This document shows positions 12,001-15,000 of a stretch of DNA of 64,000 nt, in pieces. Every line of letters starts with the position of its first letter. Position 1 is the first letter of the stretch. A program made the position numbers. The stretch is from Escherichia coli (GTDB lineage Bacteria > Pseudomonadota > Gammaproteobacteria > Enterobacterales > Enterobacteriaceae), in the NCBI RefSeq assembly GCF_045037415.1, contig NZ_CP173438.1. One strand, given 5' to 3'.

Positions 12001-15000
12001 CTCTGCACCATACTGTAGCTTCCATTCGCGGACCCGCCGTTGCATTGTTCTTCGAAGGCTGTTGGGGTACTGGCCGGGATATTTATCCTGTAGCATCTCC
12101 AGCAGAGTTGTTGGTGTCAGAGCCGGCCTCTCTTTCAACAGAGGAACAAGCATGCTGTCCCACACAGCTTCCAGAGGATCTTTGCGTGTGCGCCAGTGCC
12201 GAACACTGTTTTTTGCCCACTCTCCTTTTTCGATCCGACGACCAGAACGGACTGAGATACCAGCCTTCATGGCCGAGATATGCTGAGTTATACCTTTCTT
12301 ACGCTGAGTCATATAGTAACTGACCTGAGAAGTATTGAGCGTCACGCCATTTCCTGTTGGATCATGTAAATGACACTCAGGTTACAAAACCGGCCAGAAT
12401 AATCGGCGCCAGGCGGACTGAGTTATTGTCGTCTCATACACTCAGTTCAGGGTAAAGCGTGCTATGAAGATGAGATGTTCAGCATCAGATACTTTAAGAA
12501 GGGCTCCGCGCACATCACGTTCAGGAAACCAGAGCTGGTTGACAGATTGAATGATATTATTGCGAAATACTATCCGGAAACCTTATCGCCCGTTTAACCC
12601 AAAGCACAGACTCAGTACATACACAAAAACATTCTGATAAATCTGGCGTCATTCAGAGCAAAAAAACATGTTTTCCAGATTATTTGTAAAAAAACATACT
12701 CCAGCTATGGTGGCAGGTAGTCTGATATTTCTGTTCATTATTCTGCTGACATTTTTCTGGAAAAAAGCAGAGCTGGTGAATGACAGCCAGATCAGAGTTA
12801 ATTTCGCACTTGGCTATATAGAAAACATTCTCAATCAGAACAACAGCATCAGCCAGGAAGCAGAACATTTGCTTCTGAATAACTGTAACGCAGATACTCA
12901 GCATGAATTAAGCAATCTGCTGCTGAAACGCCCACAACTTCGTGCACTGAGCCTGGCAAGACAAGAGGCTGTATTTTGTAGCACCCACCCCGGTTTACCT
13001 GTCGGTCCAGTTGCTGAAAAGGAACAGTGGCGGCACGATATGCTGATTCGTTTTCCTGAAGATACAGGTACTCTGCCCTGGATCCTGTTAAGAACACCTT
13101 ACAAAAACGGCACGGTCATTACCGCCACGGATTATTATTTTATTCAGGACATCATCTCTGTGGTTCATGCGGTTCCTGCAATACGATTCCGTTTGGGAAA
13201 CACGGTCCTGTCAGCCAGCGGAAAAAATGTCACTCTGCTCCCGGACGACAGCGGTATACAAAAAGAAAGTCATTCAAAAAAATATCCGTTCTCCCTGATT
13301 TATATCATCCCGGTGAAAATGCAACTTACCTACGCCTGGAAACAGGCCTGGTATATGATCCCTGTTGCCATCTTCGGTGGAATACTCACAGCCTTTCTGC
13401 TGTCCCGCCGACGTCCATCTTCCCCGCTCGATATGCTGAAAAATGCACTTGCTCACGGAGAGTTCAGACCTTATTTTCAGCCCATCATTTCCGCTAAAAA
13501 TCACCAGCTAACCGGCTGCGAAGTACTGATTCGCTGGCATCACCCCGTCAGCGGAATTATCCCACCAGATCAGTTTATCCCGCTGGCAGAGTCCACCGGA
13601 TTAATTGCCCCGATAACGCAACAGTTGATGTCTCAGGTCGAACATAGCCTTAATTCTGTTGCGCATTTTTTACCGAATCAATTTCATATTGGGATCAATA
13701 TTTCACCAGCGCATTTTCTGTCTCCGGGACTGGAGGATAGCTGTATGAAGTTTCTATCCACCTTCCCGAAAGGGAAAGTGAAACTGGTTCTGGAACTGAC
13801 AGAACGAAACCAGCTATCCGTCACCGCAGAATCAAAAGCGTTATTTGCGAAATTACATCAACAGGGAGTATTGTTTGCACTGGATGATTTTGGTACTGGC
13901 TATGCAACCCACAGCTACCTGCAGTCGTTTCCTGTCGATTACATCAAACTCGATAAAGGGTTTGTACAAATGGTCGGCGTGGATGAAATCTCCGGGCATA
14001 TAGTAGAAAATGTTATTGAGCTGGCTCGCCGGTTAGGTATTGATATCATTGCCGAAGTCATTGAAACCGAATCACAGGAATTGTTCATGACAGAGAAAGG
14101 AAGCTGCTATCTGCAGGGATACCGCTATGCACCTCCACTACCCGCTGAACAGTTTATTGCTGAGTGGGTATACAACAGCGGAAACGGCAAAAACCAGAGA
14201 TAACACATACTGAAATGGACCAGGATATGCGTCCCCCCCTTTCACCTCATCTCCCAACTCCCGGGTTTGATTCCTTTTTCACAGCAAAAGGGACTGAGGG
14301 TACAAAAGAGGGTACATTTTTAACCAAACCAAACAAAATTAACCAATCTCAACATGATAGAAGCAATCTTCGATTCCGAGTCCGGCACCAAATTCATATA
14401 AACGGACCTCCACGGAGGTCCATTTTTCGTTTCAGGACGCCACGATTTAAGCGTCCTGCCGCCAAATCAATTCTACCGAACTCAACCAGATTCTCCCCAC
14501 ATCACCAGCAATTTGCGGGCATATCCCAATTCGGGAAAATTTGTTTCTGAGCTATAGCGCTGACTGACGTGAAATGTCGTGCGGCCCCGTGATGCTGTTG
14601 AACGTCAAATGACGTCATCAGGAGCGTAATGCATCCATAAAGCACAACATCGGGCAGAACGCCAACTGATGAGATTTTCTGAATGAGAACAAAGAGAAAT
14701 GTATCAGTCCGTTTGCTCATGCAAAGACTAACAATCCATTAAAATAGTAAGCGCTCCGGACAATTTTTCATGGATTATTTTCTGAACATTTTTCTTTGGC
14801 AAAGATGATGAATTTTGATGGTAAGGAAAATTACTTCTGGTTCTCAGTAAAATCCTTTCGTAATACTATGTAATCAAGAAGTTTATGGCGAGTAAAAATA
14901 ACGTCTTGCATTCACCAATAATATGTAAATAAACCCATCTATAGATGGAAAAAATAGGTTATGGCAATTATCATTGCATCATTCCCTTTTCGAATGAGTT

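Follow-up and report, generated by a model that had tools for sequence, protein, structure and literature searches.

A tRNA-Phe 3'-end remnant upstream of cadC as the very probable attR of a mosaic pathogenicity island at pheU in Escherichia coli ST131

Islands at phe-tRNA genes and related elements

Elements with P4-type integrases carry the 3' end of their target tRNA gene in attP, and after integration the tRNA gene is regained beside int at attL, while attR keeps a partial copy of it. For instance, the satellite phage P4 integrates at leuX through an attP site that contains the tRNA 3' end, so that attL has a restored tRNA gene and attR a partial copy of it. Another related element is PAI II of the uropathogenic E. 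coli strain J96, which reportedly occupies pheR (= pheU), is about 110 kb long with hly, prs and cnf1 among its cargo, and has a 135-bp imperfect direct repeat. The closest described systems are the GI-pheV and GI-pheU islands, in which a P4-type integrase gene follows directly after the phe-tRNA gene (PMC11537424, PMC7686366). In Table 1 of the former study, TTCGATTCCGAGTCCGG-CACCA is given as the "23-bp imperfect attR" of GI-pheV for APEC O1, S88, ED1a, H10407, 12009, CB9615, 55989 and other strains (PMC11537424). Moreover, papGII-positive islands at pheU and pheV have one integrase type in common (PMC7686366).

Here, we describe a remnant of the tRNA-Phe 3' end in a stretch of 64,000 nucleotides of E. 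coli DNA, which was analysed as a whole and is referred to as the window. With high confidence, we regard this remnant, at positions 14369-14390, as the attR of a large mosaic pathogenicity island (about 116-124 kb in most of the near-identical strains) that entered the pheU 3' end in ST131 (O25b:H4) by means of a P4-type integrase. Like P4 at leuX, the island has a tyrosine integrase that contains an arm-binding domain, but it targets another tRNA gene and is a decayed mosaic without the replication and capsid-size genes of P4. With PAI II of J96, as far as that island is reported, it shares the site, a similar size and the same toxin and fimbrial cargo, but it carries papGII and not the prs/papGIII allele. 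Its end module has the gene order of K-12 CP4-44 (yeeP-flu-yeeRSTUVW), i.e. GTPase, RadC/JAB, DUF987, cbeA, cbtA, DUF5983 and DUF957. However, CP4-44 lies elsewhere in the chromosome and is no more than a small remnant, whereas the module in the window forms the last ~10 kb of a 117-kb island, lacks flu and yeeR and has additional DUF905, DUF932 and antirestriction genes. The likeness to GI-pheV and GI-pheU comprises the position of the integrase gene, the 23-bp imperfect attR with the identical string, the terminal yee/CP4-44-like module and the pap, hly, cnf1 and CDI cargo (PMC11537424, PMC7686366). In comparison with GI-pheV, the island lies at pheU, and an EAL gene and an inserted ISEc10 are found at its end; these are no differences in kind.

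The features of the junction, all on the + strand, are as follows, with their basis in brackets:
1-14368, +, right-hand 14.4 kb of the pheU-integrated island (RefSeq annotation of strain THO-003, open reading frames, NCBIfam, comparison with K-12)
14260-14368, +, terminal segment conserved among islands, the presumed P arm (aligned ends of four islands)
14369-14390, +, attR core, equal to the 3'-terminal 23 nt of tRNA-Phe except for a missing G (alignment, published attR string, genome survey)
14391-14553, +, remains of the P' arm and of the integrase leader from an older island (90% identity to the pheU-int spacer at attL)
14404-14427, +, intrinsic terminator, hairpin 14404-14421 plus T-run (stem/loop search, folding energy)
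14554-14747, +, vestigial P4-type integrase (tblastn of the functional pheU integrase, RefSeq pseudogene)
15007-16545, +, cadC, the first intact core gene right of the island (open reading frame list, RefSeq annotation of ST131 and K-12)

The remnant, its flanks and the K-12 locus

The sequence at 14369-14390 on the + strand is the 22-mer TTCGATTCCGAGTCCGGCACCA, and the genuine E. coli tRNA-Phe gene of an ST131 genome (L004 27885-27960) ends in TTCGATTCCGAGTCCGGGCACCA. The remnant corresponds to the 3'-terminal 23 nt of this gene with one G dropped (GGG to GG), that is, to 22/23 identity with a 1-nt gap. A search for TTCGATTCCGAGTCCGGCACCA revealed that it is single-copy in the 64-kb window even when up to three mismatches are allowed, and at the same tolerance it was matched in none of 100 dinucleotide-preserving shuffles. 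ARAGORN called no tRNA in the entire window and an Rfam search of 14150-15050 at permissive thresholds returned no tRNA at E≤1 and only two chance matches; thus, the remnant is a fragment and not a gene. By the same two programs, a hidden tRNA or another known RNA at the remnant was ruled out as well. A direct repeat of the tRNA 3' end is present at the far boundary of the island.

Downstream of the remnant lies a terminator-like hairpin (14404-14421) with a 7-bp stem containing five G-C pairs and a 4-nt loop, which is followed by ATTTTT. With a predicted folding energy of -13.5 kcal/mol (z = -4.6), it was not equalled by any of 200 shuffles. The same hairpin is located directly 3' of the intact pheU gene in K-12, and a 90%-similar terminator copy follows the intact pheU gene at the attL of ST131. 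The terminator at 14404-14427 is the pheU terminator of island-free strains, which has been parted from its tRNA gene by the island. The cadC gene starts at 15007, 616 bp beyond the remnant, and it is this flank that identifies pheU as the insertion site.

The comparison with K-12 locates the junction to the base. In K-12, the gene order is dsbD-dicD-pheU-(integrase pseudogene)-cadC-cadB and the island is absent. In K-12 and in most other genomes, the match to the window starts exactly at 14369, inside the annotated tRNA-Phe gene. Likewise, a three-way alignment shows the window and K-12 to be collinear between tRNA position 54 and cadC, and the sequence to the left is unrelated. None of the DNA at 1-14368 is found between pheU and cadC in K-12; the region between the repeats is therefore absent from this island-free strain, in which both flanks are conserved. 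The break of collinearity at 14369 is the pattern expected of an attR junction at pheU. The earlier note on this DNA had proposed a 22-bp copy of the tRNA-Phe 3' end, with a strong terminator just behind it and cadC about 600 bp away, as an attR-type repeat of an island at pheU or pheV, with all DNA to the left being island DNA, and had suggested a comparison with the pheU-cadC spacing of K-12. This picture holds, with pheU as the site and with K-12 displaying dicD, pheU, an integrase vestige and cadC without an island, except that the copy is not a perfect 22-bp match but aligns with a gap.

The sequence to the right of the remnant has a history of its own. By BLAST, the DNA 3' of the intact pheU gene at attL and the DNA 3' of the remnant at attR share 140 identities over 156 bp (90%), and this repeat includes the terminator and the integrase leader as well as the end of the tRNA. 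It is at the start codon of the integrase gene that the two sequences become similar again, with CTGAACTATGGCACTGACTGACG at attL and CTGAGCTATAGCGCTGACTGACG at attR. In the alignment, the vestigial arm at 14391-14553 is shorter by exactly one 12-nt GGGTAYA unit. Moreover, tblastn uncovered three pieces of an integrase behind it: residues 1-11 at 14554-14586, with the start codon changed from ATG to ATA; residues ~359-391 at 14588-14671, with a stop codon inside; and residues 397-420 at 14673-14747, which extend to the natural stop codon in another frame. Codons 1-11 are thus fused to codons ~359-420 in a vestige with a frameshift and an internal stop codon. RefSeq labels it in both ST131 and K-12 as the pseudogene "tyrosine-type recombinase/integrase, missing N-terminus"; the integrase pseudogene in the pheU-cadC spacer of K-12 is presumably yjdQ. 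Because of the integrase fragments and the similarity of the leader, the segment 14391-14747 represents the left end of an island that came earlier and belonged to the same family; the integrase gene of that island has lost about 347 codons through an internal deletion. K-12 carries the vestige as well, and the stump is fixed in E. coli, K-12 included. The flank that follows the remnant is not pristine core DNA but what is left of the end of an older island. Thus, the "empty" pheU site was already a scar, and the ST131 island went in between the tRNA gene and this scar. As the right flank of attR is the stump of the older island, the two island ends share about 156 bp at 90% identity and not 22 bp. 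The 135-bp repeat attributed to J96 would presumably match this 136-156-bp repeat.

The opposite end and the cargo of the island

Window positions 1-20000 are ~100% identical to many chromosomes of E. coli O25b:H4-ST131. The window itself contains neither pheU nor the integrase gene, and their positions were taken from these near-identical public genomes. Over these 20 kb, the only difference between strain THO-003 and the window is a single 1-nt deletion at ~5757, and two substitutions follow further on, over the 47.8 kb that were also compared; position 1 of the window corresponds to position 4705800 of the THO-003 record. In THO-003, an intact tRNA-Phe gene (4602884-4602959, L004 27885-27960) is located downstream of dicD and 117 kb before attR. 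It is followed directly and in the same orientation by the gene of a 420-aa tyrosine integrase (4603157-4604419, L004 28158-29420), and this arrangement was found at 100% identity in at least 60 genomes. The integrase has the arm-binding, central and catalytic domains of a tyrosine recombinase, as judged from matches to Arm-DNA-bind_3 (PF13356, 1.9e-29), Phage_int_M (PF22022, 2.8e-27) and Phage_integrase (PF00589, 7.8e-17). Its score against the NCBIfam model PRK09692 is 250 bits, which is below the curated cutoff of 434.

Among ~16 strains, pheU lies 101.6-138 kb upstream of window position 1, with 101.6-110 kb in most of them and 138 kb in strain S12. Two strains are rearranged: in SCAID WND1-2021 there are ~281 kb between the ends, and in R3 pheU is inverted. 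The island has a length of ~116-124 kb in most of the near-identical strains and of ~117 kb in THO-003. No internal copy of the tRNA-Phe 3' core with up to three errors is present in the 117 kb between the ends in THO-003, and there is therefore one attL/attR pair. The intact tRNA-Phe gene and the integrase gene that the earlier note had expected upstream of the window are thus indeed there in the near-identical ST131 genomes, the integrase gene in full length. They do not lie within the roughly 50 kb that it had allowed for, but ~102-138 kb away (~103 kb in THO-003). This limit was too small and would have led to the rejection of a correct interpretation.

In THO-003, the integrase gene is followed by genes for an AAA-domain protein and a phosphoethanolamine transferase and by a complete pap operon with papG-II. 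The next part of the island consists of an F17-like chaperone-usher operon, cnf1 and hlyCABD. Then there are a two-component system, a restriction/methylase cluster and cdiBA-cdiI, and finally dsdCXA, a choline TMA-lyase microcompartment locus and the module that equals window positions 1-14368. This last segment contains two hypothetical genes in a stretch of 37-40% GC, genes for a YeeP-like GTPase, an HTH regulator, DUF905, DUF932 (frameshifted in the window), antirestriction, RadC/JAB and DUF987 proteins, cbeA, cbtA, DUF5983 and DUF957 genes and a DUF4942 gene that is split by ISEc10. A repeat search around ISEc10 yielded neither clean terminal repeats nor a target duplication. At 12668-14203, NCBIfam identified the gene of an EAL-domain c-di-GMP phosphodiesterase of 511 aa. 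The GTPase and RadC proteins also have NCBIfam matches; the CbeA, CbtA, antirestriction and DUF5983 proteins have none, and their names rest on the RefSeq annotation and on nucleotide identity to CP4-44 of K-12.

The module is collinear with CP4-44 from the GTPase gene to yeeS-yeeT-cbeA-cbtA-yeeW-DUF957, and window positions 6933-8699 are 88.6% identical at the nucleotide level to yeeS-yeeW over 1.8 kb. The remaining ~103 kb of the island consist of pathogenicity-island cargo with IS and ICE fragments and not of CP4 or P4 genes. The whole element is thus not a CP4-like prophage remnant but a ~117-kb pap/hly/cnf1 pathogenicity island, and the term "CP4-like", which had been used in the earlier note for the entire island, fits the terminal module only. 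At pheV, beside yghD/gsp, strain E9 was also found to have this end module together with its EAL gene. This agrees with the report of an integrase type that is shared by pheU and pheV islands (PMC7686366).

The extreme right end of the island is conserved as well. Unrelated islands at pheU and pheV share the terminal ~110 bp (14260-14368), and several genome matches begin at 14260. Within this segment, a tandem GGGTACA-N5-GGGTACA is located at 14298-14316, which is unique in the window and was matched in none of 100 shuffles. In ~290 kb of loci, the GGGTACA-type pattern is confined to the right ends of islands (L001, at the same site as in the window, L006 and L007) and to one pheU-int spacer (L004 28087-28105). 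The tandem GGGTAYA motifs may be regarded as putative integrase arm sites because a tyrosine integrase of the arm-binding kind would make use of such paired sites in each of the two arms.

The island was probably inserted by recombination between its attP site and the tRNA 3' end serving as attB, which would generate two junctions. The attL junction would consist of an intact pheU gene in which the 3' end stems from the island, as do the terminator and the downstream arm, followed by int. The attR junction would comprise the other arm of the island and the displaced original 3' end of the tRNA gene, behind which the terminator and the old DNA up to cadC would follow. The integrase encoded next to pheU is the likely maker of both junctions, either in the ST131 lineage or in a donor.

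Alternative histories and the one-G-short attR

The distribution of the attR string was determined with a 31-nt probe, in which every 28-mer spans the GG junction and which combines the string with the pheU-type flank. Of the 5426 complete genomes, 1224 have the GG attR with this flank; its location is in every case chromosomal and never under an annotated feature. A 32-nt query for the GGG form was left out of the counts since it does not distinguish attR from an intact tRNA gene, given that pheV islands bring the same downstream arm. The GG remnant is found at pheU next to very different cargo. For instance, a dog isolate has an island with the yee module that lacks the EAL gene, and a bovine strain has an island with type III effector genes encoding an EspG-domain protein and EspS. 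A pheV island whose end module is that of the window reads GGG and not GG. The attR string of the window is identical to the GI-pheV attR published in PMC11537424. Because the GG variant recurs at many phe-tRNA islands, the missing G has probably been inherited with the island family and is not a product of fresh decay. The loss may go back to attP or, instead, to an old deletion that recombination has spread, and the pheV island with GGG has to be taken into account here.

The identical GG attR and flank in very different lineages and with very different cargos would also be compatible with a history in which no site-specific integration took place in the ST131 lineage, and in which a segment with pre-formed attL and attR sites was imported by homologous recombination, e.g. 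after conjugation. The flanking core genes dicD and cadC supply homology for such an event, and recombination between pathogenicity islands has been described (PMC7686366). On the other side, the flank of attR in the window has lineage-typical differences such as an A after the terminator stem, which weighs only partly against an import. We consider this history unlikely, and even if it applied, the identity of the feature would remain unchanged because the junction would originally have been made by an integrase either way.

It has also to be considered that two elements were inserted in tandem. A small CP4-like element (1-14368) could have come first and would own the attR, and the pap/hly/cnf1 island would have entered later at the regenerated pheU gene, with the internal junction being lost. 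Indeed, the island is a mosaic with IS fragments, ICE remnants (a TraG N-terminal domain) and two inovirus-Gp2-like genes, the older integrase vestige beyond attR demonstrates that the site has been used serially, and yee-type end modules are found on islands with quite different cargo. However, the 117 kb of THO-003 contain no internal tRNA-Phe 3' core at up to three errors, no second phe-type integrase is annotated in this island, and a flu/yee module regularly forms part of single GI-pheV islands (PMC11537424). A tandem origin is therefore improbable in our view. That the remnant has no tie to integration and is either a chance match or a pseudo-tRNA that has decayed, as its mere 22 nt, the lost base and the lack of a tRNA call might suggest, can be dismissed as refuted by the synteny data, given that the homology to K-12 breaks exactly at its first base, that shuffled sequences do not reproduce it and that the same string recurs at island ends in the 1224 genomes and in the published tables.

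The reading of 14369-14390 as the attR of a single pheU island also bears on the position of the crossover. At attL, GGG is combined with ...CATATC, at attR GG is combined with ...CATATA, and K-12 has GGG with ...CATATA. If attP carries GG, these polymorphisms would place the crossover within CACCAAATTCATAT. It has been noted that a single mismatch in such repeats can cut the deletion frequency by orders of magnitude (PMC11537424). It is conceivable, albeit doubtful at present, that the one-G-short attR and the nested older island end are no neutral scars, and that a GG carried in attP and the 156-bp arms with their 90% identity would jointly balance excision by the integrase against RecA-dependent deletion and thereby tune the stability of pheU and pheV islands, for example in ST131, with the GGGTAYA-N5-GGGTAYA pairs acting as the integrase arm sites. 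In such a balance, integrase-mediated excision would be the activity that is lowered by the core mismatch.

The attR string, the island family and the pheU hotspot are already catalogued, and the remnant is a textbook attR in a heavily studied clone; the finding thus adds no new biology in this respect. However, the right boundary of the ST131 pheU virulence island with pap, hly and cnf1 is now base-exact, which is useful for annotation, island typing and the design of PCR assays for excision and occupancy. Of modest interest is that the pheU-cadC spacer of K-12 is the stump of an older island. Thus, serial integrations at pheU leave nested scars and long imperfect repeats.

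Terminal gene and probable arm sites of the pheU island

The last gene of the island integrated at pheU (12668-14203) encodes an EAL-domain c-di-GMP phosphodiesterase of 511 aa, whose top NCBIfam match is PRK10551, with a score under the PRK10551 cutoff. The attR terminator is situated 200 bp downstream of the stop codon of this gene. Since the island of strain E9, which occupies the other phe-tRNA site, pheV, ends with the same EAL gene, the gene travels with the island terminus. A tandem GGGTAYA-N5-GGGTAYA motif is found at 14298-14316 in the window and at 28087-28105 in the ST131 locus L004, which carries an intact pheU followed by int. 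Within about 290 kb of fetched loci, the motif was confined to two arms beside the phe-tRNA core, namely the island right ends and the pheU-int spacer. These pairs are probably arm-type binding sites of the integrase.

Disrupted genes and low-GC flank

The DUF4942 gene (region 9335-12597) has been broken by ISEc10, an element of the IS21 family. An extra IS3-family insertion is present near this region in strain S4.

DUF4942 gene and ISEc10
9335-10045, DUF4942 gene, 5' part
10094-10849, minus, istB of ISEc10
10846-12345, minus, istA of ISEc10
12436-12597, DUF4942 gene, 3' remnant

Moreover, one T is missing at ~5757 in comparison to all best-matching ST131 genomes (GCGTCTGCGG to GCGTCGCGG), and the DUF932 gene (5501-6318) is therefore split by a 1-nt frameshift into two ORFs (5501-5776 and 5788-6318). 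The missing T could be a genuine mutation or else an assembly error. On its upstream side, the yee-type module, a CP4-44-like gene set, is adjoined by a stretch of low GC content (1-2500; 36-40%) containing a convergent gene pair.

Convergent pair in 1-2500
739-1527, plus, hypothetical gene
1524-2477, minus, hypothetical gene

Second insertion between yjdJ-like genes

The window contains a second insertion without tRNA association (~24586-40331). Its cargo comprises two autotransporters, one of 1309 aa and the other a serine protease of the S6 family (SPATE-type), together with an AraC regulator and a chaperone-usher fimbrial cluster.

Brackets of the second insertion
24586-24858, yjdJ-like GNAT acetyltransferase gene
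40059-40331, yjdJ-like GNAT acetyltransferase gene

The duplication of the GNAT gene suggests insertion or recombination at yjdJ.

Integrase vestige in the pheU-cadC spacer

The pheU-cadC spacer harbours a vestige of a P4-type integrase gene (14554-14747), in which codons 1-11 are fused to codons ~359-420, and one 12-nt unit of the tandem motif has been lost from the vestigial arm (~14505-14530). The same reduced integrase is present in the K-12 spacer, and thus even the pheU site regarded as "empty" is a scar left by an old island.
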